From IMG/VR virus record IMGVR_UViG_3300032093_014924: a stretch of DNA of 64,000 nt. One strand, 5' to 3'. Under the pieces are notes generated by a model. That model searched no databases. It saw nothing but the letters and a program-made list of their open reading frames with translations, and had not been told where the DNA came from. This document shows positions 2,391-51,869 of this stretch, piece after piece. Position 1 is the first letter of the stretch. Each line of letters begins with the position of its first letter. The position numbers and the translations under genes are program-made. Origin of the DNA: a virus (lineage: Duplodnaviria > Heunggongvirae > Uroviricota > Caudoviricetes).

Positions 2391-4001
2391 TTAGTTAAAA
2401 AAAGTTGTAAAATTAACATCACCATCTTTATCACTCATAAAACAAATATGTTGAGCTTTACCATCATTGTGTATTATAACATGTGATTGTAACCAAGAAG
2501 AAGGTCCTAAGTTATAACTTAATCTAAGCTTTGTAGATGTTCCTACGGCTAAAGCACCATCTTTTCTTCCTGGTGTGTGATAATGGCCTAATATTATTTT
2601 GGTATTCAAACGCCTAAAATTTTCTAATGAGCCTCTTGAACCATTACTGGCTAAATCACCATGGACACCAAGTTCCCAACCACCTTTAACTTTATATGAT
2701 GATTTCCTATCTAATGTTATATATTTAGGATAAACTTTATTAATTAAATGTGGTATGACACCTTTTATTGCTGAACCACCATTAGAATATTGTTCTAACA
2801 ATATATCTGATAATTGCATGTATAATCTAGAATTTTTAAAAGTTGGTTGTTTTTTCCAATCTTCATTTTTCAACCATCTATCTAAAAAATCATCATGATT
2901 ACTTCTTACGATAACGACATTATCAAACTGTTCAAATGGTTTTAAACAATTCATTAATATATCTATTTCTTTGTTTAAATCATTCGTACCATTAATTTCT
3001 TTTCCATATTGAATAAAAGGGTCTTTAAGTTCATGGTGTGATATTGAATAACCATCAAACACATCGTGTAATACAACATGCTTTGGTTTAATTATTTTCA
3101 ATAAATCTAGGGTTTTATTTATTACATTTTGGTCATGATGACCAAAATGCATATCACCAAATACAATAGCTTCAATTGATTTTATTTTATTAACGACACC
3201 ATCTTGTACATTATAACATAAATCATTGAAAGAACCAGTTTTATCATCGGCTGTTACTTGTCTAACATAAAATACTTCATCATCTTTTATTTCAATAATA
3301 CAAAAACCAAATGTATGATGGAAATCACCTTTTTTACCAGCCTTAGAATCTGTATAGTTCTTAATTGTTAAGGCACCAGTTGACAACATCATTTTAGGGT
3401 GATTATTATCCAATACTGGAATCATCTCCATTTGAATTTTAGGTGCGCCAAAGATACATGTATTAACACCACTCAATGAATTAAGGCCACTCATTGGATT
3501 TACTGCTGTTGGTTGTATCTTAACATCTGACATAATAGACACATATTTATGAATATCATGTCTATTAGCATCAGAATATTTAATTATTTCTGGTGACCAT
3601 GTTTCTTCTTGTTTTATTTTATCACTAGCAGATAACGAAGTAGGGTTTTTATATCTTCCTAATATAACATGTATATCAGCATTTATTTCTTTAGCGTAGG
3701 CTTCTATATTCTCTAAAAATTTTTTATGAACATTTGTATTACTTTGTGCCCAAGTTATTATAAACCTTTGTTTATCTTTATCAAATTGCCTTTTTTTAGC
3801 TAACTCGTATTGCTCAGAAATTGGTTGTTCTTTTTCTTTTAAAAAGAATTTTTCTGCTACCCATTTTCTAATCGTTCTTTCAGACACTTCAAATAATTTA
3901 GATAACTCAATCGCTTTCTTTTCCCAAGACAAACCATTTTTATTTAAGTATGTCTCTTTAATCAACTCAATGTCTTTTTCATTTAATTCATTAAACCTCA
4001 T
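2391..4001 (-). CDS. HTH domain + calcineurin-like metallophosphoesterase
   Basis: N-terminal SERTIRKWVAEK helix-turn-helix-like segment. FGDMHFGHHD and C-terminal GHYHTPGR are metallophosphatase motifs. Confidence 0.55.
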   Translation of the reverse strand: MRFNELNEKDIELIKETYLNKNGLSWEKKAIELSKLFEVSERTIRKWVAEKFFLKEKEQPISEQYELAKKRQFDKDKQRFIITWAQSNTNVHKKFLENIEAYAKEINADIHVILGRYKNPTSLSASDKIKQEETWSPEIIKYSDANRHDIHKYVSIMSDVKIQPTAVNPMSGLNSLSGVNTCIFGAPKIQMEMIPVLDNNHPKMMLSTGALTIKNYTDSKAGKKGDFHHTFGFCIIEIKDDEVFYVRQVTADDKTGSFNDLCYNVQDGVVNKIKSIEAIVFGDMHFGHHDQNVINKTLDLLKIIKPKHVVLHDVFDGYSISHHELKDPFIQYGKEINGTNDLNKEIDILMNCLKPFEQFDNVVIVRSNHDDFLDRWLKNEDWKKQPTFKNSRLYMQLSDILLEQYSNGGSAIKGVIPHLINKVYPKYITLDRKSSYKVKGGWELGVHGDLASNGSRGSLENFRRLNTKIILGHYHTPGRKDGALAVGTSTKLRLSYNLGPSSWLQSHVIIHNDGKAQHICFMSDKDGDVNFTTFFN

Positions 4002-4022
4002 TATCAGTTTTTTTAGTAATAA

Positions 4023-4388
4023 TTATTTTATTTTTTTCCATTCACGAATATGGTATTTAGTTTTATATCGACCATATTCAATCTTACCAAGATAAAGTAT
4101 TATATCTAAGGCCATTGGTAATTCACTATATAATTTATCCCATTCAGCAATCTGTTCTTCTGTATATACAATATCACCAGTATCGTTTAATGGGTCAAAA
4201 TTAGTTGGTTTACCATTCAAGATTAAATCAATAGCATAATACAAATCATCTTCGCCAAATGGTGGTATAACTTCATCAAATTCATTTGTTGAAATACCGT
4301 TTATTATTTTGTCTTTACCTAAACTCCAATTAAGGTTTTTAAGTAATTTAACATGCTCTTCTTTTAACTCAAATTTTAATACACTCAT
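4023..4388 (-). CDS. hypothetical protein
   Basis: 121-aa ORF with ATGA overlap to the upstream gene. Confidence 0.4.
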   Translation of the reverse strand: MSVLKFELKEEHVKLLKNLNWSLGKDKIINGISTNEFDEVIPPFGEDDLYYAIDLILNGKPTNFDPLNDTGDIVYTEEQIAEWDKLYSELPMALDIILYLGKIEYGRYKTKYHIREWKKIK

Positions 4389-19432: not shown

Positions 19433-19578
19433 CAGTCAGGACAGGATTCGAACCTGTATGTAAACCTTTTATCAACTTACCTTTACCAAAGCGTTTCTGC
19501 GCAACCTACTTTGGATTTATGTTGGTAATTTACTCGTAAGTATAATTGCGTAGCGTCTACCAATTTCGCCACCTGACT
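19433..19578 (-). tRNA. long tRNA-like gene, type-II (Leu-like) acceptor/D/T arms with a roughly 60-nt extra insertion
   Basis: Minus strand reads AGTCAGG-TG-GCGA-AATTGGTAGA-CGC ... ACAGG-TTCGAAT-CCTGT-CCTGACT-G. The perfect 7-bp acceptor stem, canonical D and T arms and a GCGCAGAAACGC variable-arm-like hairpin support a tRNA. Total length is about 146 nt. Confidence 0.5.
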
Positions 19579-21811: not shown

Positions 21812-22135
21812 ATGGGATACATTTATTTAATTCTTGAAGTCGATGCTTTTGGTAACGAAAGATGCAAAATAGGTTTTACAAAAAACAATCCAGAAAAAAG
21901 AGTTAAATCTTTGCAAACTGGTAATTCAAATAATATATCATTATTGAAAACATTCGAAACTAAAAATTATAAACTTCTTGAAAAATGGTTACATGGAAAA
22001 TTCTATAGCCAAAAAACTGAAGCTAATAACGAATGGTTCCAATTAACTAATGAAGAAATTAATAATTTCACCATAACCTGTAAAGAATATGATGAAATTA
22101 TTAATTCATATAACGAAAAAGTTAATTTAATTTAA
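21812..22135 (+). CDS. T5orf172 / GIY-YIG-like DNA-binding domain protein
   Basis: GYIYLILEV...CKIGFTKNNPEKRVKSLQTGN matches the T5orf172 pattern GYVYxL...KIGxT...R...L.TG. Plus strand. Confidence 0.5.
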   Translation: MGYIYLILEVDAFGNERCKIGFTKNNPEKRVKSLQTGNSNNISLLKTFETKNYKLLEKWLHGKFYSQKTEANNEWFQLTNEEINNFTITCKEYDEIINSYNEKVNLI

Positions 22136-22177
22136 TTTTTTTTAATGTTATCACTATTTATATTAAAAAAAATATAA

Positions 22178-22324
22178 ATGGGAAAACAAATTAAATCTTC
22201 AGGTTCTTCATCATTATTAACCAAACCAAGGGTTCGCAGAAAAGGAATTCACGCTAAAAGCAAAGCAAGTAGAGGCAAAAAAACTAAAAATTATTTAAAA
22301 AGATATCGAGGCCAAGGCAAATAA
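22178..22324 (+). CDS. small highly basic protein (manual call, 48 aa)
   Basis: MGKQIKSSGSSSLLTKPRVRRKGIHAKSKASRGKKTKNYLKRYRGQGK has an Arg/Lys-rich composition like nucleic-acid-binding or ribosomal-type small proteins. Confidence 0.3.
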   Translation: MGKQIKSSGSSSLLTKPRVRRKGIHAKSKASRGKKTKNYLKRYRGQGK

Positions 22325-22546
22325 TTAAAGATTCGATATATCTTTTAATATGTTTTGATTGTTTTTAATGAAACCATAAAACATCTGTTGCATCAATGGT
22401 GGTATTAAATTACCATCAACATACACAACATAATTTAATACGCCAATCTCTTGACCTTTCTTTAAAGTTATTTCATTAGTTAATGAAACATCTTCTGTTA
22501 ATTTGTACCTTACATTATTTATTTCCATATTATTTCTTAGCATCAT
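22325..22546 (-). CDS. hypothetical protein
   Basis: 73-aa ORF. Confidence 0.3.
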   Translation of the reverse strand: MMLRNNMEINNVRYKLTEDVSLTNEITLKKGQEIGVLNYVVYVDGNLIPPLMQQMFYGFIKNNQNILKDISNL

Positions 22547-23801
22547 ATTCTGGGTTCATATATTTACAAGATAAGTCATTACTAAAATGTGTCCTAATAA
22601 CAACACCTTCAATAACTCTACCTTGTTCTTTTTCTTTTGCAATAATTGAATCACAAAACTGACATAATTCTTCATATGAAGATGGTTTAACCAATTCTGG
22701 TTTTGTGTATTCCAAACCTAAAGCGACACATACAGTTTCAAGATTAAATTCACTTGAATAGTTTAATCTTTTTGAAAAACCTTCAGATAAATTATCAATA
22801 CCAAACATTCTAAGTGTTTGTTTTTTATTAGAATCTGGATTATATTTGTTACCAGAACCCTTTAACCCCTGACCATAAATTTCACCTCTAAATGCTAATT
22901 CCAAACCATGTGTTTTACAATATTCTAATCCTTTATCAATTAAACCACTTGAATACGCTAAATCAACCCAAGAATCTTTTACATCAACAAAAATTGGGGT
23001 TAATGAATCAAGTTCTTCATTTGTTCTGAAATCATTTAACGCATCACAATACCAACCCTTTTCTTTCGTTTCTGGGTTAATATATTTATGATAATTGTTG
23101 TTATTAGCATCAAAATAATTTGTAATCGCTTTTTGTTCAAGTTTTTTCTCTAAACTTCTTGAACACACACCAACCTTATATTCACCATCAATAAGTTTAA
23201 AATATGTCGTGTGTGATGAACCATCATGTTTAATTGTAACACCAAACACTGTGTTACCATCACATAACTTCATAACCCTTGATTTAAGGTTTGAATAATT
23301 TTCTTCATCCGTTTTATATAAGAAAGATGGGAAATCACCAGCAATCAAACCAGAACCAGCTGTTTCAGGTTCTTCATATTTTGTAATACCAAGAATTTCT
23401 GTTATATCATCAGTATCTGAATCTTTACCAATAAATGAATCAACTTCACTCTTTGGTAATAAAACACCAAAAGAATAGATAGGGTCTGTTGATTCAGCAA
23501 ATGAGAAATTAAATTTAATTGCCCTAACCCTATTGTTTTTACCTAACCTGCTTTTCTTAGGGTCATTATCTGGCATTGTAAAACTATTGAATAATCCAAT
23601 GTCTGATAAGCAATAATCAGGTTGAATATAACAGGCTTTTGACCCTATTTCATATAACCCTTTTTGTGCAATGACATTGTACCCACATTCATCACCATTC
23701 TTAAACTTAAAGTTGATTACTTGGATACTATTAGCCTCTTCACCATTCTTGTATACAGGAATGATTTTATTTACTTCAACAATTTCAACTGGTTTTATCA
23801 T
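22530..23801 (-). CDS. ATP-dependent nucleic-acid ligase (KxDG nucleotidyltransferase; RNA-ligase-like)
   Basis: GVTIKHDGSSHTTYF = motif I KxDG of the covalent nucleotidyltransferase superfamily. 423 aa. Confidence 0.5.
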   Translation of the reverse strand: MIKPVEIVEVNKIIPVYKNGEEANSIQVINFKFKNGDECGYNVIAQKGLYEIGSKACYIQPDYCLSDIGLFNSFTMPDNDPKKSRLGKNNRVRAIKFNFSFAESTDPIYSFGVLLPKSEVDSFIGKDSDTDDITEILGITKYEEPETAGSGLIAGDFPSFLYKTDEENYSNLKSRVMKLCDGNTVFGVTIKHDGSSHTTYFKLIDGEYKVGVCSRSLEKKLEQKAITNYFDANNNNYHKYINPETKEKGWYCDALNDFRTNEELDSLTPIFVDVKDSWVDLAYSSGLIDKGLEYCKTHGLELAFRGEIYGQGLKGSGNKYNPDSNKKQTLRMFGIDNLSEGFSKRLNYSSEFNLETVCVALGLEYTKPELVKPSSYEELCQFCDSIIAKEKEQGRVIEGVVIRTHFSNDLSCKYMNPEYDAKK

Positions 23802-23947
23802 ATTTCTTTTTTTTTTACAAAGTTACTAAAAAGTTTTTTAATGTGCAAATATTTTTTTTATTATAGGATTAAAATTAAGATATATTTATTTCTTCTATCC
23901 AAAAATTTTCATTTGGAAAATCTCTTTTATATTGAATGCGTAAAACC

Positions 23948-25299
23948 CATAAGTCTTTAGCTTATGTGATATAAGCACTACAAAAATACAAATAAATAAA
24001 CAAATAAACAAATAAATATTTTTTTTTCTTAAAATATGTCTTTTTTAATATTATCATATATTTATCATATATAGAGTTAATCTGATAAATAATGTTAAAA
24101 TCATATAAATATAAACTTAAACCAACTAATGAACAAATTGTTTTATTGAATAAACACTTTGGTTCAATTAGGTTTATATATAATTATTTTTTAAATGAAA
24201 GAAAACATGAATATGAAACAAACAAAAACTCAATTAATTATTATGATAACGCTAAATCATTAACTGAATTAAAAAAACAAGATAATTATTCATGGTTAAA
24301 AGAAATTAATTCACAATCATTACAGGATTCATTAAAAAATTTAGAAACAGCTTATAAGAATTTTTTTAGATTCAAAAAAGGTTTTCCTAAATTTAAATCT
24401 AAACACGATAAAAATAGTTTTACAATACCTCAATTTGTTAAATTAAATAAAAATGAATTATCTATACCTAAATTTAAAGACCCTATTAAAGTCATTATAG
24501 ATAGAAAATTTAATGGTTTAATTAAACAATGTACTATTTCAAAAACACCAACAAATGAATATTTTGTATCTATTTTGGTTGAAACTGAACATAATAAATT
24601 ACCAAAAACTAACAAATCTGTTGGTATTGATTTAGGTATTAAAGAGTTTGTTATAACATCTGATGGTTATAAATATAAAAATAATAGATACACAAAAACA
24701 TACGCTAAAAAACTTAAAGAACATCAACAACATTTAAGCAGAAAAATAAAAGGTAGTAACAGATATAATAAACAAAAATTAAAAGTGGCCACTATTCATA
24801 AGAAGATAACCAATTCTAGAATAGATAATCTACATAAAATATCCACAGATTTAATTAAAAAATATGATTTAATTGTATTGGAAGATTTAAATATTAAGGG
24901 TATGGTTAAAAATCATAAATTATCTAAACATATTTTAGATGTTTCATGGGGAAAATTTGTAACAATGTTACGTTATAAATCTGAATGGAATGATAAAAAA
25001 ATAGTTAACATAGATAGGTTTTTTCCTAGTAGTAAAACATGTAATTGTTGTGGTTATATTAATCAAAATTTAAAATTAAATATTAGAGAATGGGTTTGCC
25101 CATCATGTAATACTAAATTAGATAGAGATTTAAACGCAAGCATAAATATCCTTAAAGAAGGAAATAAGATATTATCGTCAGGAACTGACGATTACAGACG
25201 TGGAGATGAAATAAGACCAACATCCGTTGGCACAATCGGTGAAACGTCTAAAATTCTTAACAATATTGTTAAGAAACCCATTGGTCTTTAGCCAATGGG
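23948..25299 (+). mobile_element. IS200/IS605-family (IS1341-like) TnpB-only insertion element
   Basis: The only large plus-strand gene in its neighbourhood. Flanked by two related hairpins with an identical TCTTTAG loop: CATAAG-TCTTTAG-CTTATG at 23948-23966 and CCCATTGG-TCTTTAG-CCAATGGG at 25277-25299. Confidence 0.6.
24092..25291 (+). CDS. tnpB: TnpB (OrfB_IS605) RNA-guided endonuclease-family transposase accessory protein
   Basis: N-terminal YKYKLKPTNEQ, central RuvC-like region, and C-terminal CNCCGY...CPSCNTKLDRDLNASINI zinc ribbon + RuvC-III signature. Confidence 0.85.
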   Translation: MLKSYKYKLKPTNEQIVLLNKHFGSIRFIYNYFLNERKHEYETNKNSINYYDNAKSLTELKKQDNYSWLKEINSQSLQDSLKNLETAYKNFFRFKKGFPKFKSKHDKNSFTIPQFVKLNKNELSIPKFKDPIKVIIDRKFNGLIKQCTISKTPTNEYFVSILVETEHNKLPKTNKSVGIDLGIKEFVITSDGYKYKNNRYTKTYAKKLKEHQQHLSRKIKGSNRYNKQKLKVATIHKKITNSRIDNLHKISTDLIKKYDLIVLEDLNIKGMVKNHKLSKHILDVSWGKFVTMLRYKSEWNDKKIVNIDRFFPSSKTCNCCGYINQNLKLNIREWVCPSCNTKLDRDLNASINILKEGNKILSSGTDDYRRGDEIRPTSVGTIGETSKILNNIVKKPIGL

Positions 25300-25533
25300 T
25301 AGTTCATCTATAGTGTTTATTAAAGCCATATGTGGAATATGTCTACCAATCAACACAGACCATATTAATTCACGTTTTTGATTTAAATCCCAAACAAAAT
25401 CACGCTGTAAGTTCTTACCTCTTGTTTCTAAGAAAACATCCCAATCAATATTTAATTGTTTAAAGTACTTTACGCTTGAGCAAGCTTCTTCAACTTTTAG
25501 ACCAATATTTCTAAGTTCTTTTATAGTTTTCAT
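25288..25533 (-). CDS. hypothetical protein
   Basis: 81-aa ORF. Its 3' end runs into the right-end hairpin of the IS. Confidence 0.35.
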   Translation of the reverse strand: MKTIKELRNIGLKVEEACSSVKYFKQLNIDWDVFLETRGKNLQRDFVWDLNQKRELIWSVLIGRHIPHMALINTIDELPIG

Positions 25534-26654
25534 TTTTTTAAATGTTCGTATAACCTCTTGTTATCAAAGTCTTTAAGGTATTCTTCTGGTGATGGTGTTT
25601 TACCGTCAATCAAAGAGAAAAACATATTTGAAAATAACATTAAATTATTCTCTGAACAAACTTTAAATACATTTGTGGCGTAATTTTTACGTTCTTCTTT
25701 TGTGTTGTTCTTAGGTTTAAATTCATATAAAACATACCAATAATGATTTAACGCACGTATTAACCCATAATACTTTTCTCTTAGTTCAAGTATCTCATTT
25801 TCACGTTCTTTGAATGTTGATATGAATTCTTCAACTTCATTATTCTTTATTATCCCCAATATATTATAAAAAGATAATTTATCTTTTAAATGGTGAACCA
25901 AAACATATTCAGGATTCTTTAATTTAACTCTGTTAAAATCATTATCAACAATAACATACCCCTCTTCTGAAAATGGCATATTTTCAAAAGTCTTAACCAA
26001 AGAATCTATGTTCTTATTTAGGTCATATTCAGTCACCACAGGGATATTTATTTGTTTTGATACTTCCATTACATCATTGTAAGATAATTCGTTTAAGGTC
26101 TTTAAATCCCTTATTGTTAATAATGTTAGTGAAGATTCAGAATGTGGTTTAACAACAATATTATAAGGTGTCATTAATTCAAAAACATAACTAAAACCTT
26201 TTGTTAATTTATTTTCAGTTAAACCATATTTTGAAGCTGTATTCCAAAACAGTTGATTAAATGTTAAATCTAACATTCCATTAACATTCCCTTCACCTTC
26301 AGCAGTTCCTGTTGTTGCAGCAAACCACTTATCTTTATTCCAATCGTAGTGTAAATTAATTAAAGAACCATCACACTTCTCAAGGATTCTTGCGGTATTC
26401 CAATTAATTGTATGAGCATTAGTTTCACTATGATTAAAGAATTTTTTAAAAGCCATACCAATAACTTTCCATGTGTCTAATTCGAGAATTAATCCACGAC
26501 ATTCTTGAACTTCTTCCAAAGCCATTATTACTGGTGATGATAATTGGTCATACTTTAATATGACTTTATCATAGTATAACTTATGTTTTAACTCTAAATC
26601 AGATACGGTTTTTTCTAACCCATCTCTATTTAACTTTTCAACTATTTTTAACAT
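25530..26654 (-). CDS. rnlA: RNA ligase 1 family (T4 RnlA-like)
   Basis: RILEKCDGSLINL = KxDGSL motif I, as in T4 Rnl1 (KEDGSL). 374 aa. Confidence 0.6.
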   Translation of the reverse strand: MLKIVEKLNRDGLEKTVSDLELKHKLYYDKVILKYDQLSSPVIMALEEVQECRGLILELDTWKVIGMAFKKFFNHSETNAHTINWNTARILEKCDGSLINLHYDWNKDKWFAATTGTAEGEGNVNGMLDLTFNQLFWNTASKYGLTENKLTKGFSYVFELMTPYNIVVKPHSESSLTLLTIRDLKTLNELSYNDVMEVSKQINIPVVTEYDLNKNIDSLVKTFENMPFSEEGYVIVDNDFNRVKLKNPEYVLVHHLKDKLSFYNILGIIKNNEVEEFISTFKERENEILELREKYYGLIRALNHYWYVLYEFKPKNNTKEERKNYATNVFKVCSENNLMLFSNMFFSLIDGKTPSPEEYLKDFDNKRLYEHLKK

Positions 26655-34014: not shown

Positions 34015-34040
34015 AAGTGATTTATTTTTAAATGTTTTAG

Positions 34041-34112
34041 TAGCCCCACTTGGAATTGAACCAAAAACTAATTCTTAGAAGGAATTTGTTATATCCGTTT
34101 AACTATAGAGCC
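34041..34112 (-). tRNA. tRNA-Arg(UCU) candidate
   Basis: Minus strand: GGCTCTA-TA-GTTA-AACGGATA-TAAC-A-AATTC-CTTCTAA-GAATT-AGTT-TTTGG-TTCAATT-CCAAG-TGGGGCT-A. The acceptor stem needs three G-U pairs, so confidence is moderate. Confidence 0.45.
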
Positions 34113-34123
34113 ATGTTTAATTG

Positions 34124-34197
34124 TGGGCCTCACAGGACTTGAACCTGTAACCCCTTGATTATGAGTCAAGTGCTCTAACCGCTTGAGCTAGAGGCCC
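34124..34197 (-). tRNA. tRNA-Met/Ile2 (CAU anticodon)
   Basis: GGGCCTC-TA-GCTC-AAGCGGTTAGA-GCAC-TTGAC-TCATAAT-CAAGG-GGTT-ACAGG-TTCAAGT-CCTGT-GAGGCCC-A gives a clean cloverleaf. Promoter motif at about 34204-34225 immediately upstream. Confidence 0.8.
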
Positions 34198-36268: not shown

Positions 36269-37183
36269 TTATTTAATTGTTTTTTTAAAGTTATCTGTTT
36301 CTAACGATGTTATTTTATTACCAAGTTCTTGACTAGGTTTAAGATTAAATTTATCCATTACTTCTTGTGAATTAACAGACAATTCAAAATCTATAAAAGC
36401 ATCAACTAACTTTTTATCTAAATTATTTATTTGACCGAATTTTTTTATTTGTTCATCATTCAATGTTATATTTTTTTGCATCTTTTTTAATGCTACGGCT
36501 GTATCAATACTTATATTTAAAAAACTAAGTAAAAATTGAATGTTTCTTATCTCATCAATAGTGTATCTTAATTCATTTAATTTGTTACCAATGTTTTTAG
36601 GGTTATTTAATTTTAATAAAGTTGATATTGTTATGATATAATCATCTGTTAAGTTTTTGAAATTCTTATTAATATTAAGTTTAGGAAAAATCCAATCAAA
36701 TAAATTATATCTATCTATTAAAGATAGAAAGAAAGAAACATTTTTAGCTGATTTAATTCCTTTAATAAATTCATCTTTTACTCTCTCAGCAGATATACCT
36801 TCTAAACTAGCATCTTTTTGTAATGCTTCATCTGTTTGTTGGTCTATATCACTATCTAATCTGGCTGAGAATCTTAGAACTCTTAAAATCCTAAGTCTAT
36901 CTTCATTGAATCTATCTTCTGGTTTACCAACGGTTCTAATCACACCATTTTTTATATCTTCAATACCACCAACAAGGTCAACAATTTCTTTATTTTTAAT
37001 ATCGTAAAATAAAGCATTTATTGTTATATCTCTTCTTAGCACATCTTGATATATATCTGTGAATTCGACTGAATCTGGTCTTCTTTTATCAGCTAAAGTT
37101 TTTTCATAATCTTCAAATTCTTTTTTAAAGAATTCTTTAGCTATTTGTTCCCAATTTTCCATTTTAATTATTTTAATTTCCAT
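36269..37183 (-). CDS. CCA-adding tRNA nucleotidyltransferase, C-terminal portion (neck/body), separate ORF
   Basis: ADKRRPDSVEFTDIYQDVLRRDITINALFYD = the conserved RRD(F/I)TINA motif that follows the head domain. Begins with its own ATG overlapping the end of the GIY-YIG gene. Confidence 0.7.
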   Translation of the reverse strand: MEIKIIKMENWEQIAKEFFKKEFEDYEKTLADKRRPDSVEFTDIYQDVLRRDITINALFYDIKNKEIVDLVGGIEDIKNGVIRTVGKPEDRFNEDRLRILRVLRFSARLDSDIDQQTDEALQKDASLEGISAERVKDEFIKGIKSAKNVSFFLSLIDRYNLFDWIFPKLNINKNFKNLTDDYIITISTLLKLNNPKNIGNKLNELRYTIDEIRNIQFLLSFLNISIDTAVALKKMQKNITLNDEQIKKFGQINNLDKKLVDAFIDFELSVNSQEVMDKFNLKPSQELGNKITSLETDNFKKTIK

Positions 37184-37875
37184 TTATAACCACCACACTT
37201 ATTTCTATTACCATTTATTACCGACCAAATATTGCCTTGACTCAACCCTAATTCTTTTGCTGCTGCTGTTGCACTAACCCATTCTTTAATTAATTCACTA
37301 TCTTTAGATAATTGTAATACTGGTGTTGCGTTCCAAGACAAAGTACCTTTTTTGGTTTCTGATATTTGTTTTTTAGTCTCTTCGCTGTGTTTATTACCAG
37401 TATTTCTACCAGGTTTACCAATTAATGATTGACTTATTTTTTCTCTTGTTATATTACTAACCTCCCTATTTTTATTGTTTTGACTGATTTTATTCCTATA
37501 CTCTAACGACCTTATGTGACCAGAAACACCATCGCCTCCATTGGTAAGGTTGGTTAATGGACCATTTTTTAAATCATTCCTACCAATAACTAATATTAAT
37601 TTTTTTTCTAACTCGAAAGCATCAACTTCAAATATATTTTCACTAATTTTTAAAATTATTGGTTTTAAACCAATATTTATTATTTTATTAATTTTTCTAA
37701 TTTTATATGTGTTATTATCACACTTCATCCTATTAGGGTTTAAGTGTTCTAAGCATCTTTTGTAACATCCCTTTCCAACATAAAATGGTTCATATTCAAA
37801 TTTATAATCACCATATGTAAATTCACCTTTTTTTCTTGGGTCTAGGTAAACATAGACATAATATTTTGATTCCAT
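37168..37875 (-). CDS. GIY-YIG homing endonuclease inserted within the CCA-enzyme gene
   Basis: YVYVYLDPRKKGEF...FYVGKGCYKRCLEHLN = GIY-YIG module, with C-terminal NUMOD-like basic repeats. Located between the two halves of the CCA enzyme. Confidence 0.75.
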   Translation of the reverse strand: MESKYYVYVYLDPRKKGEFTYGDYKFEYEPFYVGKGCYKRCLEHLNPNRMKCDNNTYKIRKINKIINIGLKPIILKISENIFEVDAFELEKKLILVIGRNDLKNGPLTNLTNGGDGVSGHIRSLEYRNKISQNNKNREVSNITREKISQSLIGKPGRNTGNKHSEETKKQISETKKGTLSWNATPVLQLSKDSELIKEWVSATAAAKELGLSQGNIWSVINGNRNKCGGYKWKLK

Positions 37876-37919
37876 GACATTCTTTTTATTATAAATATCA
37901 TGGATTAATCTAAAAGTCG

Positions 37920-39485
37920 CTATTTCATTAATTTAGTTAAAAATTTTTCGTAACTACCATTATTTAAACGTTTTAAATAATCTTTAAACCCTTCTAAATC
38001 ATAACCTTTATATTGGTCTATTCTGAATGTGGCTATTTCATATTCATCACTATCTGTTATAACATTAATGACACCAAATGCTTTTCCTGTTGCTATTGTT
38101 TTATAACCGTTTTCTTGTAATATGTTTTCAATATCATCTGGTTTAGCATTTGTTGCTAAATCATAATCTTTTGGTTCTTTATTTAGTAAAACATCCCTTA
38201 CTGAACCACCAACAAGATATAAATCATAACCATTCTTAACAAAAATATCTTTAATATCTATTATGTCCTTTGGTAAGTTAATATCATATTTAATTCTTAT
38301 TTCAGATGAAGTATTTAATTTATTTTCGTTTTCGGTAAAAAATTGTTTATATTCATCATCTTCTTTCACGTTATTTAATAAACGTTCTTCTTCATCATTT
38401 AATGGTCTATTTATGTTTTTTAAAATCAATTCTTGATGTTTTTCATCATACTTCCAAAAATCTTCTAAAATATCTTCTAATATAGTTACATCATTTACTT
38501 TAATGTTTTCATCATAAATTAATTTAATATAACCATCATCAATCATTTTTTTAACCATTTTATAATGTGGTAATTTTTCTAATAAACCATTCTTAAATTT
38601 AATTGGTAATGAATTATAATAAACTTTTTTTAAGTTTTCATCTAACTCATCTAATTGATAAGGTTCAAAATAATATTCAAAATTTTTTATATAAATTATT
38701 TTTTCATTATTTTTTAATTTATTAAAAAAATCAATACTTAATTTATCACCAGCTAAAGCATCTGAACGCATATTTGGGAAATTAGTTATCACATCACGTT
38801 TTATTTTACAAAATAGTTCTGGGTTTTTAACTTCTACTGGATTAGACGATAGTTTAGATAAATCATATATAACAGACCCGTGTAATGTATTATCATACCC
38901 ATCTATACCGCTAACATTAACACCATTAAAACCATTGTACTCCATTATTCTTGTTGACATGGATGCTAAATTGGTTTTGTTCTTCATGTCATTTGCGGCT
39001 TCTTTAACCATATTTATATATTCACGATATTTTGGAATATTTAAACCTAGGTATTGTGCATTATTTATTATTTTTAAATAAATAATTTTGAATTTGTTAT
39101 CCATTTCAAATTTGCTATCATAAACTCTAACAACTAAATAAAAACTTTCATTTATTAGTTTTAATGTTTTAAATAACATTTCAGCATGGTCTGGTGATTT
39201 AACCCTAAATAAATTTTTATAAATATCAAAATCAACACGATAAATATTATCTTTTATTTTAGTTAATTCTTTTTTTGAGTTATCGGAATCATCAAAATTT
39301 TCACAACTATAAGTAGAAAAATAAAGACCAGAACCAAAATGCCCAGTTCCACGACCTTGCATACGAAATAAATTATCTGAACCATATGGTCTTATATTTT
39401 CTACATTTTCTATATCACCTTTATGGTAATTAAATTCCGTTTCGTTTAATAAGTTTCTTAATTTGAATTTAATATAGTTTTTCAT
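37920..39485 (-). CDS. Unknown about 400-aa N-terminal domain fused to the CCA-adding enzyme head domain (N-terminal half of the split nucleotidyltransferase)
   Basis: C-terminal 90 aa YDLYLVGGSVRDVLLNKEPKDYDLATNAKPDD...GKAFGVINV...EYEIATFRIDQY = class-II polymerase-beta head domain (GGxVRD, DxD, ATFR). The ORF stops immediately after. Confidence 0.7.
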   Translation of the reverse strand: MKNYIKFKLRNLLNETEFNYHKGDIENVENIRPYGSDNLFRMQGRGTGHFGSGLYFSTYSCENFDDSDNSKKELTKIKDNIYRVDFDIYKNLFRVKSPDHAEMLFKTLKLINESFYLVVRVYDSKFEMDNKFKIIYLKIINNAQYLGLNIPKYREYINMVKEAANDMKNKTNLASMSTRIMEYNGFNGVNVSGIDGYDNTLHGSVIYDLSKLSSNPVEVKNPELFCKIKRDVITNFPNMRSDALAGDKLSIDFFNKLKNNEKIIYIKNFEYYFEPYQLDELDENLKKVYYNSLPIKFKNGLLEKLPHYKMVKKMIDDGYIKLIYDENIKVNDVTILEDILEDFWKYDEKHQELILKNINRPLNDEEERLLNNVKEDDEYKQFFTENENKLNTSSEIRIKYDINLPKDIIDIKDIFVKNGYDLYLVGGSVRDVLLNKEPKDYDLATNAKPDDIENILQENGYKTIATGKAFGVINVITDSDEYEIATFRIDQYKGYDLEGFKDYLKRLNNGSYEKFLTKLMK

Positions 39486-39519: not shown

Positions 39520-40407
39520 TTAACAACCAAAAAAATCTTTTAAATCTTCATTTTTTTTAAGGTCTCTTATCGCAAACTCTATTATTTTTTTAATTCTTAT
39601 AGTTGTCATATTATACTCTTCTGACATTTGTTTAATTGTTAATTGTTTATAGTCATACAAACCATAATAATGACAAATAATAACTCTACTTATAGGGTTT
39701 AAAGAATATATTACCTTTTTTAATACTTCGTTTGATTCTTTTTCTTCACTATCTACTTCAAAATCATTGTGTTTGAATAAATAATCATTTTCTTCAGTTA
39801 TTAATGATTTAGTAACAACACTAGATTTAATAGCCATCAATACACTATTTTTTATTCTATCTGTACCAATATCAGAATTATTAATAACATATTCGTAATC
39901 AAGTTCATGACCACATTCTTTCTCCATTTTTGCTTTCAAATTATTTATTATTTTAATTTTAGGCATAATGTTTGAAGATATGTTAGCTACATATAAATTT
40001 TCATTTAAAAACAATAAAATTCTTTTTCTTATATGCCAAATAGCATATGAAATAAATTTATTATCTGAATCTGTTTTGAATTGTTCAATAGCTTCACTTA
40101 AGCCAATATTGCCCTCACATATCAATTCTTCAACACCAATATCACCACTGGTTATTTTTTTAGCATATGTTCTTGCAACAGAAACAACAAATAAAAGATT
40201 ATGATTTATTATTTTATCTTTTATTTTTTTTCTGTCTAATTCATCAGTTGTCTCAGACAACTTTATGAATAGTTCTTTTTCTTCTTCTTTGGTTAAAGGT
40301 TTAAGCTTTTCAATTTGACTGTAATAAGCTTTTAAAGATTCTTTAGATAATGTGTTTACAAAAAAATCATCATTACCAAGTCTTTTTTTACCGAAATCTG
40401 TTATCAT
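39520..40407 (-). CDS. Sigma-70 family RNA polymerase sigma factor
   Basis: Region 2 FISYAIWHIRKRI and region 4 LTIKQMSEEYNMTTIRIKKIIEFAIRDLKK. Confidence 0.7.
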   Translation of the reverse strand: MITDFGKKRLGNDDFFVNTLSKESLKAYYSQIEKLKPLTKEEEKELFIKLSETTDELDRKKIKDKIINHNLLFVVSVARTYAKKITSGDIGVEELICEGNIGLSEAIEQFKTDSDNKFISYAIWHIRKRILLFLNENLYVANISSNIMPKIKIINNLKAKMEKECGHELDYEYVINNSDIGTDRIKNSVLMAIKSSVVTKSLITEENDYLFKHNDFEVDSEEKESNEVLKKVIYSLNPISRVIICHYYGLYDYKQLTIKQMSEEYNMTTIRIKKIIEFAIRDLKKNEDLKDFFGC

Positions 40408-41386: not shown

Positions 41387-41489
41387 GTTGTTAGGACAGG
41401 ATTCGAACCTGTACGCAGTATCTTAATTACAGGCTCTTTTCACGATACTGCCGAGCCATGCGTGCGTCTACCAATTCCGCCACCTAACT
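41387..41489 (-). tRNA. long type-II tRNA-like gene (Leu-like), about 103 nt
   Basis: AGTTAGG-TG-GCGG-AATTGGTAGA-CGC ... ACAGG-TTCGAAT-CCTGT-CCTAACA-A. The middle 50 nt contains a 9-bp stem CGCAGTATC/GATACTGCG. Confidence 0.45.
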
Positions 41490-41757
41490 TCCACCCCACC
41501 TTGAGATTACTGGTGAGTAGATGTATCGGTTTTCTTTCTTTCAATAAACCTGTGGGTCTTACCCTCTTAAAATTAGTCAAACTACTTGGAGCCTCTGTTA
41601 CCTAGCTTTATTCCAAAGAGACTGGCGTTTTATAGAGCTATAACCAGTTTCTACCAAAATGTGATAGTCTTCTTTATAGATATTAGGATGTCCAGTCTAA
41701 TACCCTATTCATTGTTTAAGTCTTGAATTAAAGACTCTGAGTATCTCTTACTCATTG

Positions 41758-41843
41758 TAGTTAGAGTGGGGGTCGAACCCACAAGGGCGTTTCTGCCCAC
41801 AAGATTTTAAGTCTTGCATGTTTTCCTATTTCATCATCTAACC
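41758..41843 (-). tRNA. tRNA-Leu(UAA)
   Basis: GGTTAGA-TG-ATG-AAATAGGAAAA-CAT-G-CAAGA-CTTAAAA-TCTTG-TGGGCAGAAACGCCCTTG-TGGG..TTCGACC-CCCAC-TCTAACT-A. Anticodon UAA, long variable arm, canonical T loop. Confidence 0.7.
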
Positions 41844-42964: not shown

Positions 42965-43317
42965 TTGTAAGGTTTTTAGTGGAGCGAGTCGGAGTTGCAC
43001 CAACGTGTTGGTTATTCTTCAATACCTTTCTACATGTTTATAATGGTTTTCTAACCATTCAAAATACATCAAATTTGTTAAGTTCTCTGATTAGAAACTA
43101 ATGGACTACCATTATGTTGTAGAAAATACTACAATTAAGTAAGTTATTACTATCAGCGATATCAGGCTACCGCAAGCTCTCCAGCGAAGCTACATGTAAC
43201 TTCGTTAAGGAAATTTTCAGAAACAACTAAATCGTTGCCATTTGTTTGTTTTGATAGGGTATTTAAGTGTTTCCATCTAACACTACATGCTTAATACTTA
43301 CGACTATAACCAGTCGA
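42965..43317 (-). ncRNA. ssrA: tmRNA (SsrA)
   Basis: Minus-strand 5' end GGGGCGAUAUUAGAAUCGACUGG... is near-identical in pattern to the bacterial SsrA 5' end GGGGCUGAUUCUGGAUUCGACGGG. The 3' end ...GGUGCAACUCCGACUCGCUCCA is the T-arm-like + acceptor strand pairing with GGGGCGA. A candidate internal tag ORF ...FAGELAVA-UGA ends with a typical hydrophobic (A/L/V)A tag. Promoter motif about 14-19 nt upstream. Confidence 0.8.
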
Positions 43318-43330
43318 TTCTAATATCGCC

Positions 43331-43350
43331 CCATTGTTTTAATAATTATT
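43331..43350 (-). promoter_or_regulatory. conserved upstream motif instance upstream of tmRNA
   Basis: ttattacaaatatactaaaa about 14 nt 5' of the GGGG start of ssrA. Confidence 0.5.
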
Positions 43351-43399: not shown

Positions 43400-43924
43400 T
43401 TATGTGTATTTATCAATAATAGTTTTAAACATGTAATAATATGTGCTAATAGTTGTTTTAGCACCGTGAGTACTAACATTATTAAATTCATTTTTAATAA
43501 CATCAGAAATATTGTTTATGGTTGATGCTTTTTCTATAAATGAAAAACCCTCCCTTTCTTGAAATATGATTAACGCTTTTCTAACGCTGTACGTGCCGTA
43601 AAAAGAAAACGGCATATAGTTTGATTTTATCCAATCCCACATGTCATTAGGGTTGTTTGTGTTTGGTGCTTCTTGATGACAATCTTTACATAGAAGAACA
43701 TAGTTGTCAGGTGAATCACTACCACCTAAACTATGTGGAACTATATGACATCTTTCTAATGAAGGGGTTTTATGTGATTTTCTAAATCTGTCATCACCAC
43801 AATTCCAACAGTGTGTGTGTGCATCGGCCCAATCGAAATTTAATTCTAGTTCACTTATATTACTATTTTTTATCCAGTAATCAGCAATATGTTTTATAGT
43901 TGTTTTACAATATCTTGTCGCCAT
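43400..43924 (-). CDS. HNH homing endonuclease
   Basis: HCWNCGDD...CHIVPHSLGGSDSPDNYVLLCKDCHQ = HNH motif with zinc-binding cysteines. Confidence 0.75.
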   Translation of the reverse strand: MATRYCKTTIKHIADYWIKNSNISELELNFDWADAHTHCWNCGDDRFRKSHKTPSLERCHIVPHSLGGSDSPDNYVLLCKDCHQEAPNTNNPNDMWDWIKSNYMPFSFYGTYSVRKALIIFQEREGFSFIEKASTINNISDVIKNEFNNVSTHGAKTTISTYYYMFKTIIDKYT

Positions 43925-43933
43925 TATTATTAA

Positions 43934-44650
43934 TTATTTTTTTCTACTTATTACCGAATCAATAATACCATATTTAAGTGCTTCATCAGCATTCAACCAA
44001 AGGTCCCTGTCAGCATCTTTCATAACTTGTTTTGCAGTTTTGTTTGTGTACTCACCAAGCAACCCAAATAATATTTCATTATATTTCTCAGTTTCAGCAA
44101 TTGTTAATCGCATGTCTTGAATAGTACCCCCCATTGAAGAAGAAACTTGGTGTAGCATAACTCTACTGAAACTTAAACTATACCTTTTACCTTTGGTTCC
44201 AGCACCTAATAATACACTACCCATACTAGCGGCCATACCTGTGTTTATAGTGACGATATCAGAAGATATATAACCAATAACATCAACAATTGATAAACCA
44301 CTTTTAACGCTACCACCAGGTGTATCAATATGTAGAGTAATATCTTTTGTTTCCATATTATCAAGAAACATTAATTGTGCTTGAACAACCGTGCTCATCC
44401 TATCGTTAACTGGTCCAGCTAACCATATAATCCTATCCATCATCATTCTATCAAACACTGACATTAGTGTTGCTCTGAATTCTCTTTCTTCCAAAATCAT
44501 CGGTGATAAAGAACCAAATACATTTACATTTGAATAAATGTTTTCTTGCAGTTTTTCCCAATAATATAGTTGCATACTGCTTATGCCCATGTGTTTTGTT
44601 GCATAAGATTTGAATTCTTCATGCATACCAGTGTCTACTAAATTTTCCAT
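43934..44650 (-). CDS. clpP: ATP-dependent Clp protease proteolytic subunit ClpP
   Basis: DRIIWLAGPVND...TPGGSV...NTGMAASMGSVLLGAG...MLHQ gives a full-length match to the ClpP fold, with a catalytic Ser (GMAASMGS) and His (LHQ). Confidence 0.85.
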   Translation of the reverse strand: MENLVDTGMHEEFKSYATKHMGISSMQLYYWEKLQENIYSNVNVFGSLSPMILEEREFRATLMSVFDRMMMDRIIWLAGPVNDRMSTVVQAQLMFLDNMETKDITLHIDTPGGSVKSGLSIVDVIGYISSDIVTINTGMAASMGSVLLGAGTKGKRYSLSFSRVMLHQVSSSMGGTIQDMRLTIAETEKYNEILFGLLGEYTNKTAKQVMKDADRDLWLNADEALKYGIIDSVISRKK

Positions 44651-45106: not shown

Positions 45107-45643
45107 TTAATTATTAAAGCATTTCCTACATATAGGTATATAAGTTTTTTTATCACCGATATACATCAAATCAGTATTATTAACCATTCTTTTAGAATAG
45201 TTTGCCAAATTTTTCTTACAGACCATACAAATTGAATTAATCTTATCAACTTTATCAGCAATTGAAAATAATTTAGACATTGTTATAAACGGATTTCTTT
45301 CATAATCCAAATCTAAACCACTTATTATTATTCTTTTACCTTCATCAGCCATTCTTAATACAATCTTGTATAAATCTTCATCAAAGAATTGAGCTTCATC
45401 TATTGCAATAACTTCATAATCTTTACTCTTATTGTAGATATCATCAATGTTATCGACAACAACAGCTTGTAATTCACCACATAAATCATGTGTTGCTATT
45501 GCATTATTTTCCTTTTCGTTTCTACTATCAATGTTAGGTTTGAAAACAATGAAACTTGTTTCAGAAATTATAACTCTTTTAATTCTTCTAATCAACTCTT
45601 CTGTTTTACCTGAAAACATAGGGCCACAAATAACCTCAATCAC
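45107..45643 (-). CDS. tdk: Thymidine kinase
   Basis: MIEVICGPMFSGKTEELIRR (P-loop) ... IAIDEAQFF ... C-terminal Cys-pair zinc ribbon (CMVC...CRKC). Confidence 0.85.
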   Translation of the reverse strand: MIEVICGPMFSGKTEELIRRIKRVIISETSFIVFKPNIDSRNEKENNAIATHDLCGELQAVVVDNIDDIYNKSKDYEVIAIDEAQFFDEDLYKIVLRMADEGKRIIISGLDLDYERNPFITMSKLFSIADKVDKINSICMVCKKNLANYSKRMVNNTDLMYIGDKKTYIPICRKCFNN

Positions 45644-47744: not shown

Positions 47745-48737
47745 TTATTCGGTTATATTGTTTTCAATAATTCTTAATTTATTTATCACTTCTTTTTGTT
47801 CTTCTGTTATGCTTTTTGGTATTGATATATCAGCAATAACAAATAAATCACCACGTGAATTGCTTTTAAATTTATTTAATCCTTTTTGTGGTATTCTAAA
47901 CATTTTATTTAATTCAGTATGTTCTGGTATGTTAATTCTTATTTTACCACCATCAATCGTTTCTATATCTATTTTATCACCTAATACTAATTGGTCATAT
48001 CTTAGCTTAACATTTAACTTTAAATCATCACCAGACCTAACATACGTGTCATGTGGTAATTCTTTAATTCTGACGATTAGATTACCATTTATACCATTCC
48101 TAACAGCATTACCTCTACCATTTATATTAAAACCCATATTTTCAAAAACACCTTTTGGTATTTCTAATTCTATTTCGTCTGTTATCTTTTTAGTACCACT
48201 ACCATTACAATCACCACAAACATCCTCATAAACAATACCATCACCTTCACAAACATTACAAGTTGTTGCTTGTTGGAAATAACCAAATGGTGTTTGTGTT
48301 ACATTAATAATAACACCATCACCATTACATTTAGGGCAAGTCTTAGAATTTGTACCACCATGACCATTACATGTTTTACAACTATCCAATCTATCAAATC
48401 TATATTTGTTTTTTACACCATTATGTATCTCGTTAAGATTTAATTTAATTTCTAATAAAACATCACTACCAATCTTTTGTGGTTTCGCAAAATCATTAAA
48501 ATCAAATATTGAACGTCTTTTTTCTGTACCAAATCTATCATAATTTGACCTTTTTTCATCATCAGATAATACACCATAAGCCTCAGATATGTCTTTAAAT
48601 TTTTCTTCAGCTTCTTTGTTGTCAGGATTCTTATCTGGATGATATTGCTTTGCCAACGTTCTATAGGCTTTTTTAATCTCATCCTTTGTTGCATCTTTAG
48701 CAACGTTTAAAATAGCATAATAATCTTTCTTTGACAT
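47745..48737 (-). CDS. dnaJ: DnaJ (Hsp40) chaperone
   Basis: J domain DYYAILNV...[16 protein letters not shown]. Four CxxCxGxG zinc-finger repeats. C-terminal substrate-binding domains. Confidence 0.85.
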
Positions 48738-51647: not shown

Positions 51648-51869
51648 TTAAATTGTTTTGAAAAAATTTTTAATTGATTCTTTTAATTTAACGTACCATG
51701 GTTTTTTTATTATTTTTATGGTTGTTAAATTTTTTTTCATTTCATCACCTAAACCATTTTTTAATTCGTTAATGAATTGTTGTTTTTTTAAAGAAGTCAA
51801 ATACTCGTCATTTTTTGCTTCTTTTTCAAGTTTTTTAAGCTCTCTTACTAATAAGTCTTTATTATTCAT
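51648..51869 (-). CDS. hypothetical protein
   Basis: 73-aa ORF. Confidence 0.35.
   Translation of the reverse strand: MNNKDLLVRELKKLEKEAKNDEYLTSLKKQQFINELKNGLGDEMKKNLTTIKIIKKPWYVKLKESIKNFFKTI

Follow-up and report, generated by a model that had tools for sequence, protein, structure and literature searches.

ISDra2 of Deinococcus radiodurans is the closest characterised relative of the element described here, which lies in a 64,000-nt stretch of the virus record IMGVR_UViG_3300032093_014924 (the whole stretch is called the window below). ISDra2 carries tnpA as well as tnpB, and its guide RNA is formed from the tnpB 3' end plus the right end (RE) of the element; this omega-RNA ends with -6G, -5U, -3C, -2A and -1A before the guide (PMC10097598). 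Elements of the IS1341 group in the IS200/IS605 family have tnpB as their sole gene; their ends bear hairpins but lack inverted terminal repeats, and the target is not duplicated (PMC13565253). IS608 of Helicobacter pylori has subterminal hairpins on one strand and inserts 3' of a short target (TTAC). Bases at the 5' foot of each hairpin complement its cleavage sites. Among phages, IS200/IS605 elements have been annotated in Campylobacter phage CPt10 (ISCaje), Clostridium phage c-st (OrfB), Lak megaphages and cyanophage A-1(L) (PMC2853527; A-1(L) preprint).

Positions 23931–25307 of the window very probably hold a structurally complete, non-autonomous IS200/IS605 insertion sequence of the IS1341 group, with TnpB as its only protein, in the genome of an uncultured huge phage. 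The element is 1377 bp long, with each boundary placed to ±1 nt, and is a further example of this known class, all of whose defining features that we tested are present. TnpB has a helix-turn-helix domain, a RuvC-type OrfB_IS605 domain, a zinc-ribbon TNB domain and the catalytic D/E/D; subterminal hairpins lie on the same strand at both ends, terminal inverted repeats are absent, and the end sequences outside the palindromes are not inverted copies of one another. Insertion is 3' of a short conserved target without target-site duplication, the window copy having an adjacent deletion of ~770 bp, and tnpA is absent, only 161 nt separating the left boundary from the tnpB ATG. As in an OMEGA system, a predicted structured RNA, recognised by structure and covariation, spans the tnpB 3' end and the RE with its guide outside the element, and both a presence/absence polymorphism and copies in differing contexts mark the element as mobile. 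Its parts are as follows.

23926–23930, plus strand: TTTAT target site and predicted target-adjacent motif (TAM), directly 5' of the left end; register uncertain by 1 nt
23931–24091, plus strand: left end (LE), comprising linker, hairpin, AT-rich spacer and conserved box, from the LE family alignment and from homology to the empty allele, which stops at 23934
23946–23968, plus strand: LE subterminal hairpin CCCATAAG-TCTTTAG-CTTATGTG, 6 bp plus an interrupted outer pair
24092–25291, plus strand: tnpB coding sequence, 399 aa, from Pfam, PHROG and structure matches
25166–25307, plus strand: predicted omega-RNA (reRNA) scaffold with 3' tail GUUCA(U), from RNA fold and covariation
25277–25299, plus strand: RE subterminal hairpin, also the last omega-RNA stem, from the DNA fold and relatives
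25300–25307, plus strand: RE tip TAGTTCA(T), where the element ends, conserved in relatives whose flanks diverge beyond it
25308–25323, plus strand: predicted 16-nt guide and target, CTATAGTGTTTATTAA, from its position directly 3' of the RE, with the length taken from ISDra2

The element shares with ISDra2 a TnpB of like domain order with matching catalytic and zinc residues, a guide RNA predicted from the tnpB 3' end plus the RE, a scaffold ending G-U-(U)-C-A-N just before the guide, and GAA at the 5' foot of the last hairpin. The TAM is TTGAT in ISDra2 and TTTAT here, both of them 5-nt T-rich sequences that differ at one position. In contrast to ISDra2, the window element is without tnpA, resides on a phage, has a 7-nt UCUUUAG loop rather than a UUUA tetraloop on its last stem, and yielded no location for the pseudoknot partner of the tail. 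One-strand subterminal hairpins and insertion 3' of a short target are common to IS608 and the window element, and the pairing of cleavage sites with hairpin feet has the same arrangement here (AAA/TTT and GAA/TTC); the target and end sequences differ from those of IS608, and TnpA is missing. Within the IS1341 group, members of this lineage have so far turned up on phage-like metagenome contigs alone. The annotated phage elements resemble it in bringing tnpB into virulent or large phages, but nucleotide identity is just 64–67% over parts of tnpB. The cyanophage A-1(L) copy is identical to copies in its host (preprint), whereas no close bacterial copy of the window element was found.

Ends, target site and relatives of the element

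A sequence-only reading of the window had picked out two hairpins sharing one loop, taken them for IS200/IS605 subterminal palindromes and noted that the right one overlaps the tnpB stop codon, and each of these points stands. The left hairpin, CATAAG-TCTTTAG-CTTATG, lies at 23948–23966, and the right hairpin, CCCATTGG-TCTTTAG-CCAATGGG, at 25277–25299 with the stop codon TAG (25289–25291) inside its loop; both are conserved with covariation in relatives. A repeat finder returns them as one 24-nt direct repeat, AAACCCAT[AA/TG]GTCTTTAGC[TT/CA]ATG, at 23943–23966 and 25274–25297, the two copies differing at four positions whose changes offset each other in the stem. By chance, 0.01 occurrences of the degenerate 24-mer would be expected in the window, and two are present. 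A scan across the window gave no convincing further copy of the stem-TCTTTAG-stem arrangement, and the other two GTCTTTAGC 9-mers (32148 and 60229) are within coding sequence and form no hairpin. As single-stranded DNA the RE hairpin is strong (-10 kcal/mol, z -5.7), and GAA at 25273–25275 pairs with TTC at 25303–25305.

Relatives define the ends more closely. We found 17 loci in IMG/VR that encode TnpB relatives at 43–86% identity. On contigs that reach the ends, an 8-bp hairpin with the TCTTTAG loop precedes the ATG by ~125–160 nt and another spans the stop codon; over 12 related copies on phages share these end hairpins, whose stems have undergone many compensatory changes. Eight stem variants were seen, all of them complementary: CCCACGAA/TTCGTGGG, CCCACAAA/TTTGTGGG, CCCAACCA/TGGTTGGG, CACGGAAA/TTTCTGTG, CACAGAAG/CTTCTGTG, CACATTAG/CTAATGTG, CCCATCGG/CCGATGGG and CCTAATTA/TGATTAGG. 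On the right, TAGTTCA directly follows the RE hairpin in 14 loci (TAATTCA once), and the flanks are unrelated beyond it, with no common motif of the TTTAT kind. On the left, TTTAT lies 15–19 nt 5' of the LE hairpin in 13 independent contexts, with unrelated sequence further left, and so the TAM, which the sequence-only reading had proposed to look for next to the left end, can be read off as TTTAT. The two bases that follow it vary among contexts (AT, AG, GT, AA, TA, CC). The triplets at the 5' feet of the hairpins complement the cleavage motifs, AAA of the LE matching TTT of TTTAT and GAA of the RE matching TTC of TTCAN.

The hairpins could conceivably be regulatory elements of the phage, either terminators or a repeated intergenic motif, that bracket a captured tnpB. 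They could serve as bidirectional terminators around a gene of opposite orientation, and several omega-RNA stems are terminator-like on the minus strand; however, the motif is present at only two places in 64 kb, travels with tnpB to unrelated contexts, is absent along with tnpB from the empty allele described below, and is followed by no T-run at either hairpin, which makes this explanation extremely improbable.

Treating the hairpins as transposon ends, we set the limits of the element at 23931 on the left, directly after TTTAT, and at 25307 on the right, because the tail pattern of the ISDra2 omega-RNA matches G-U-U-C-A-N here. A left boundary after TTTATAT or after TTTA was rejected, as positions 6–7 vary across contexts; the TTTAT register is also favoured by the empty allele (TTTAT/CTATAG, the slash marking the boundary) and by the extra base that follows GUUCA in the ISDra2 scaffold. 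Homology to the empty allele resumes on the right side at 25303–25308. The ends, the TAM (TTTAT), the guide and the omega-RNA region are now defined to within one or two bases.

Between the left hairpin and tnpB, the AT-rich LE spacer contains an imperfect 8-nt tandem repeat, (ACAAATAA)n, at 23979–24021. Several short contigs of this phage end near this repeat (217 nt upstream of the ligase-like gene), which suggests that assemblies break within the (ACAAATAA)n stretch. Further right, a conserved ATATTTAT box at 24058–24065 lies 27–34 nt before the tnpB ATG; it is found at the same position in nine relatives (L001, L002, L007, L009, L013, L067, L071, L072 and L078), 27–40 nt before the ATG. 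The box contains the TAM sequence TTTAT and may be the -10 region of a tnpB promoter. A scan for sigma-70 promoter-like sites showed no enrichment.

In several copies the ends have decayed. The hairpins of L067 (and L068–L070) are degraded and its tip reads TCGTCCA in place of TAGTTCA (RE at 4190–4215 of L067), the left-hairpin arms of L001 are mismatched and come from two different stem variants, the left-hairpin loop of L005 carries a 17-nt insertion, and L078 (with L079–L081) is missing the left hairpin. The copies with decayed ends (the window copy, L067, L001 and L078) all retain an intact tnpB.

Absence of a second copy had been named in advance as a result that would count against an insertion sequence; a 93%-identical copy, L067, was located in a different phage context. 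More than 120 clusters formed at 90% identity contain relatives at ≥77% identity, on phage-like contigs of up to 325 kb, and none of 185,579 bacterial and archaeal species genomes has a copy above 57% identity. A megablast search of 24 kb against 50,697 phage records returned no match, and distant blastn matches were to tnpB genes only, at 64–67% identity over parts of tnpB. Two further candidates for copies in multiple contexts, P0035 and P0089, were set aside, since the short contigs of each share one context.

The sequence-only reading had also stated that no TnpA is present and that the element is non-autonomous or domesticated. No Y1_Tnp domain is found among the window open reading frames (ORFs) of at least 85 aa, for which every Pfam match below 1e-12 was listed; a crude HUH/Y motif scan of the window gave no TnpA, and gene tables around ~25 related loci contain none. 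The element is therefore non-autonomous, whether or not it is also domesticated. Membership of the autonomous IS605 group, which requires a Y1 HUH transposase gene (tnpA) beside tnpB, was rejected on this basis, as was an IS607-type element, no recombinase adjoining tnpB and the ends bearing hairpins of the IS200/IS605 type. A hairpin-binding transposase nevertheless appears still to exert selection on the family, because the LE hairpin, which lies outside the omega-RNA, is conserved with compensatory changes. All members seen of this large lineage lie on phage contigs, none of them accompanied by a transposase, which raises the question of what moves the element.

TnpB and its predicted omega-RNA

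TnpB contains the Pfam domains HTH_OrfB_IS605, OrfB_IS605 and Cas12f1-like_TNB, all over cut-off, matches phrog_506 ('transposase') at 3e-135, and aligns end to end with the ISDra2 TnpB structures 8bf8, 8exa and 8h1j (E = 7e-81, 40.5% identity over 375 residues). The RuvC D/E/D triad, proposed earlier as a decisive check, is intact: D180 (GIDLG), E264 (VLEDL) and D346 (DRDLN) align with D191, E278 and D361 of ISDra2. A CCCC zinc finger (C317, C320, C336 and C339) aligns with the zinc cysteines of ISDra2, and all seven residues are conserved in every one of the 10–11 relatives compared. Pairwise ratios of nonsynonymous to synonymous substitution (dN/dS) against the window copy are 0.10–0.27, with 0.105 against the 93%-identical L067, and tnpB is under purifying selection. 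The description of tnpB as the only long plus-strand gene holds in part: it is the longest plus-strand ORF in a window of 26.6% G+C in which nearly all remaining genes are on the minus strand, but there are other real plus-strand genes, among them one at 21812–22135 and a 218-aa ORF at 48793–49449.

The suggestion that the omega-RNA scaffold would be found by folding the right end proved fruitful. The segment 25150–25306 folds at -49.2 kcal/mol, compared with -27.8 ± 3.6 for shuffled sequences (z = -5.9), with stems at 25174–25192, 25197–25201/25244–25248, 25217–25230 and 25276–25300; a fifth stem at 25254–25275 was seen in the single-sequence fold, and its covariation was judged by eye. In an alignment of 12 right-end regions, 17 of the 37 consensus pairs stay paired despite changes on both sides, and 92.5% of cells are paired compared with 25–46% when the partners are slid by 1–3 columns; none of 500 shuffles reaches any observed measure. 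All omega-RNA stems, the RE hairpin and the tail are intact in the window copy. The scaffold would occupy the last ~140 nt of the element; its 5' limit is probably near 25166, judging by how TnpB aligns with ISDra2, whose scaffold is 116 nt long. RNAalifold paired the GUUC of the tail with GAAU at 25088–25091 as a pseudoknot; we rejected this pairing, which lies ~215 nt upstream in invariant coding sequence and shows no covariation.

The predicted guide, CTATAGTGTTTATTAA, is found only once in the window. By analogy with ISDra2, the window TnpB is predicted to carry out RNA-guided, TAM-dependent cleavage of double-stranded DNA. The occupied allele would itself be spared, because the right end of the element places TTCAT where the TAM would be. 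The same arrangement bears on the idea that the protein is a TldR-like, nuclease-dead TnpB acting for the phage as an RNA-guided transcriptional repressor. Phage-encoded TldRs exist in the literature, and the guide points into a phage gene. TldRs are distinguished by loss of RuvC residues or C-terminal truncation and by the lack of transposon ends, whereas here the D/E/D and zinc finger are intact, TnpB is not shortened in comparison with that of ISDra2, the element has both transposon ends and the guide match in the filled genome is preceded by TTCAT, not by a TAM. Membership was accordingly rejected, and we give a repressor role almost no credence.

A compact TnpB of 399 aa, 40% identical to that of ISDra2 and with an A/T-rich TAM, is of modest practical interest. 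Engineering comparisons can draw on over 100 natural variants whose omega-RNAs can be aligned.

Filled and empty alleles of the insertion site

An exact-sequence look-up of the neighbouring Rnl1-like ligase led to two element-free contigs (L054 and L059), and a later look-up added two more (L082 and L083), giving four empty contigs from four samples. The gene order in the empty allele is the ligase, a 172-aa DUF262/GmrSD_N gene, a 74-aa ORF, a 93-aa ORF and a 423-aa ligase-like gene. Aligned with L054, the window is 99.5% identical up to 25303 and 95.7% identical leftwards from 23934, and the 766 bp between are replaced by the element. The replaced DNA comprises codons 77–172 of the DUF262/GmrSD_N gene, the 74-aa ORF and most of the 93-aa ORF, and it leaves two remnants in the window.

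25288–25533, minus strand: truncated DUF262/GmrSD_N-like gene, 81 aa, with native residues 1–76 and its last codons and stop supplied by the element RE
23875–23934, minus strand: remnant of the 93-aa ORF, its last ~20 codons; L054 3552–3611 aligns to window 23934–23875

Because the empty allele shows the replacement, the 81-aa ORF can be read as the first 76 DUF262 codons run into the element RE. Full-length DUF262 homologues have 172–176 aa and an IDGKQRL motif, tblastn homology of the truncated gene ends at the element boundary (25306–25309), and its C-terminal part is found nowhere else in the window. Two earlier statements about the site thus have to be corrected. The element had been described as inserted between two ligase paralogs; it replaces ~770 bp relative to element-free contigs of the same phage, so the insertion is not a simple one, and the ligases show no detectable paralogy (BLASTP E = 0.37) and belong to distinct RNA-ligase families (phrog_968 and phrog_562).

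Both breakpoints of the empty allele follow TTTAT, the left at CTCTTTTAT / ATTGGTTATC and the right at CATTTTTAT / CTATAGTA. We infer that the element inserted after the right-hand TTTAT, within the DUF262 gene, and that ~770 bp were later lost at a 10-nt repeat, TTTTATATTG. Alternatively, insertion at the left TTTAT could have been followed by a rightward deletion, in which case the TTTAT of the right breakpoint would be a coincidence. The joints expected from excision and from a simple insertion are as follows, a slash marking each junction.

Predicted circle junction: …GGGTAGTTCAT / ATTGAATGCGTAAAACCC…; shorter form, …TAGTTCAT / ATTGAATGCG…
Predicted left junction of a simple insertion: …CGTCATTTTTAT / ATTGAATGCG…
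Predicted joint of precise excision: …AATCTCTTTTAT / CTATAGTG…

The precise-excision joint had no match in the metagenome contig collection. A control pattern taken from the left end of the element likewise had no match in that collection or in the viral contigs, so these collections are without this phage and the negative is uninformative. Other routes to an empty site were of no help: distant relatives of the Rnl1-like ligase (50–54% identity) have different downstream genes, the exact right flank of the L002 copy matched only its own contig, and use of the window as an empty site for the L067 and L071 insertions was rejected because the flanks are non-homologous.

The four empty alleles carry TTTAT followed by CTATAGTATTTATTAA, which differs from the predicted target only by a synonymous change at position 8 (window 25315). 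This position is G in the window and in all 10 distinct element-bearing contigs and shows G>A in the empty alleles, and it is the sole difference within ~760 nt of the junction. The filled allele dominates, with the element present in about 21 of the 23 contigs that encode an identical ligase (Rnl) protein, and an identical TnpB protein occurs on 22 metagenome contigs, in one context throughout and on contigs of up to 236–293 kb. Over the left flank, which includes the 423-aa ligase-like gene (window 21837–23934 against L054 3552–5646), the filled and empty alleles differ by 4.3%, compared with 0.5% on the right; this contrast in divergence points to a recombination boundary at the locus.

It is possible, though on balance we think it rather unlikely, that TnpB and its omega-RNA act independently of any TnpA as a homing or competition device that cuts co-infecting element-free relatives, so that the element and its deletion are copied in and the phage benefits. 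This proposal overlaps with our preferred explanation and differs in its TnpA-independence and in the benefit to the phage. It is consistent with the lack of TnpA in the window and at ~25 loci, with the confinement of close relatives to phage-like contigs (the best bacterial or archaeal match being 57%), with the predominance of the filled allele, with the retention of TTTAT and the target, synonymously changed at guide position 8, in 4/4 empty contigs, and with the persistence of TnpB in copies with decayed ends (dN/dS of 0.105 for L067; no LE hairpin in L078). TnpA-independent homing has been shown for plasmids and proposed for co-infecting phages (PMC13565253). However, the LE hairpin lies outside the omega-RNA and is nonetheless conserved with compensatory changes, as selection by a hairpin-binding transposase would produce, and copies are found at many unrelated TTTAT-adjoining sites, which transposition predicts and homing alone does not. 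The polymorphism at position 8 had a chance of ~5–7% of falling in a 16-nt guide, given the density of such changes in the flanks, and is suggestive only; it may also reflect haplotype linkage, as the left flank differs by 4.3% between alleles.

A stronger form, to which we give somewhat less weight and which we regard as doubtful, is that the locus is a snapshot of an RNA-guided gene drive: an element without TnpA would cut the empty allele (TTTAT plus CTATAGTGTTTATTAA in the DUF262 gene), carry the ~770-bp deletion along and reach ~90% frequency, with the sole surviving empty alleles being those made resistant by a synonymous seed mismatch (G>A at guide position 8). If this were true, the phage-restricted radiation would reflect a lifestyle like that of homing endonucleases and not that of bacterial insertion sequences. 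The logic may match that of the T4-like free-standing homing endonucleases (Seg/Mob), which cut the allele lacking them in a co-infecting relative and are copied in along with flanking DNA; the likeness would be functional only, with recognition here by an RNA guide and TAM and not by a protein. Taken together, the facts fit TnpB-driven homing with surviving resistant alleles but also plain linkage. What is new is a natural pair of filled and empty alleles of one phage with a defined TAM, guide and one-mismatch target. This pair makes TnpB homing between viral genomes testable, where so far it has been proposed there and shown only for plasmids.

At the other extreme, the element might be an immobile relic, a fixed passenger that has lost excision and whose TnpB has no current role, the gene merely having not yet decayed. 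The weakened LE hairpin, the occupation of one site, with the same junctions in every element-bearing contig, the rearranged locus implied by the adjacent deletion and the decay of ends in related copies (the L067 RE tip, the L001 LE arms and the missing LE hairpin of L078) would all agree with this. Against it, 22 contigs carry an intact TnpB ORF that is the same in all of them, purifying selection is seen even against the 93%-identical copy (dN/dS 0.105), and neither the RE hairpin and tail nor any omega-RNA stem has a flaw in the window copy; we consider a relic improbable.

Several observations weigh against the preferred interpretation, a complete IS1341-group element with a working guide RNA. 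Neither an E-value scan of 23500–25800 nor a gathering-threshold scan of the window with Rfam gave an omega-RNA family, the sole matches being tRNAs, a transfer-messenger RNA (tmRNA) and one chance snoRNA match. No pseudoknot partner could be assigned to the GUUCA tail, for which GAA at 25241–25243 and at 25182–25184 are candidates. Transcription of the omega-RNA and cleavage by TnpB are predictions from sequence only, and a TnpA that would move the element was found neither in the window nor beside its relatives. The insertion is not clean: one of the two junctions has to be of later origin, and a search by way of the 93-aa ORF for an intermediate that has both the element and the 770 bp, as a simple insertion would, gave only further empty alleles. 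The left boundary is ambiguous in that the first four nucleotides of the element (ATTG) equal the sequence after the left TTTAT of the empty allele. Finally, the LE hairpin is weak as single-stranded DNA (-3.2 kcal/mol, z -2.1), because a C·T mismatch breaks the outer stem, and the window copy may have lost transposition, given this weak hairpin and the occupation of one site with identical junctions in 10/10 distinct element-bearing contigs.

By homology with ISDra2 and IS608, a history of the locus can be proposed for an IS1341-group element of this kind. The element would have entered single-stranded phage DNA 3' of TTTAT within the DUF262 gene, using a Y1 transposase supplied in trans that would recognise both TCTTTAG-loop hairpins, while the cleavage sites (TTT of TTTAT on the left, TTC of TTCAN on the right) would pair with the AAA and GAA triplets at the hairpin feet. 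The ~770 bp to the left of the element would then have been lost, probably between TTTTATATTG, formed by the target and the first four bases of the element, and an identical sequence upstream. The TnpB–omega-RNA complex would use CTATAGTGTTTATTAA to cut DNA in which this sequence follows TTTAT, that is, the element-free allele, and the cut allele would be repaired from an element-bearing copy, resulting in homing or retention. The occupied allele, with TTCAT at the TAM position, would be immune.

Related phages vary greatly in what follows the Rnl1-like ligase gene, which makes this stretch a hotspot. One related phage has a GIY-YIG gene (L024 8370–9128, minus strand) and another a probable HNH endonuclease gene recognised by motifs only (L026 6096–6530, minus strand), and in one empty allele an additional gene with an HD_4 domain precedes that of the 423-aa ligase-like protein (L082 4363–4878, plus strand). 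In L025, a polynucleotide-kinase homologue is split (2314–2865 and 3763–4140) by ~900 nt between residues 185 and 182, which suggests an intron or an inserted element.

Host phage and neighbouring genes

The window encodes tRNAs, a tmRNA, ClpP, DnaJ, translation initiation factor 3 (IF3), sigma factors and several genes of the homing-endonuclease type. Because of these cell-like genes and the contigs of 236–293 kb, we assign the host genome to an uncultured huge phage. ClpP, a full DnaJ, a thymidine kinase, sigma-70-like factors and a NUDIX hydrolase are encoded at 43937–44650, 47748–48737, 45110–45643, 39523–40407 and 51869–52399, all on the minus strand, and IF3 (N and C domains) and YqeY are also encoded within the window. 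The RNA genes matched by Rfam and ARAGORN are a tmRNA, which scores 48.5 bits against a cut-off of 47 bits, and tRNAs that include tRNA-Arg(TCT), tRNA-Met(CAT) and tRNA-Leu(TAA).

42977–43332, 34040–34197, 41757–41843, 19433–19578 and 41388–41489, minus strand: tmRNA and tRNA matches (Rfam, ARAGORN)

Two of the Rfam tRNA matches, at 146 and 102 nt, exceed the usual length and have no ARAGORN call; these may be intron-containing or degenerate tRNAs.

Among the endonuclease-type genes, one of the T5orf172/MUG113 (GIY-YIG-like) kind (21812–22135, plus strand) lies 1.8 kb left of the element, and an HNH endonuclease gene (43403–43924, minus strand) adjoins clpP and the tmRNA. The tRNA nucleotidyltransferase/PolyA_pol gene (36272–39485, minus strand) looks split: the ORF at 37923–39485 ends with positions 3–77 of the head-domain profile, and the ORF at 36272–37183 starts with positions 69–126 and includes the RNA-binding domain. 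A GIY-YIG/NUMOD homing-endonuclease gene (37171–37875) lies between the two, and the split could be due to an endonuclease-carrying intron or to a gene divided by a homing endonuclease.

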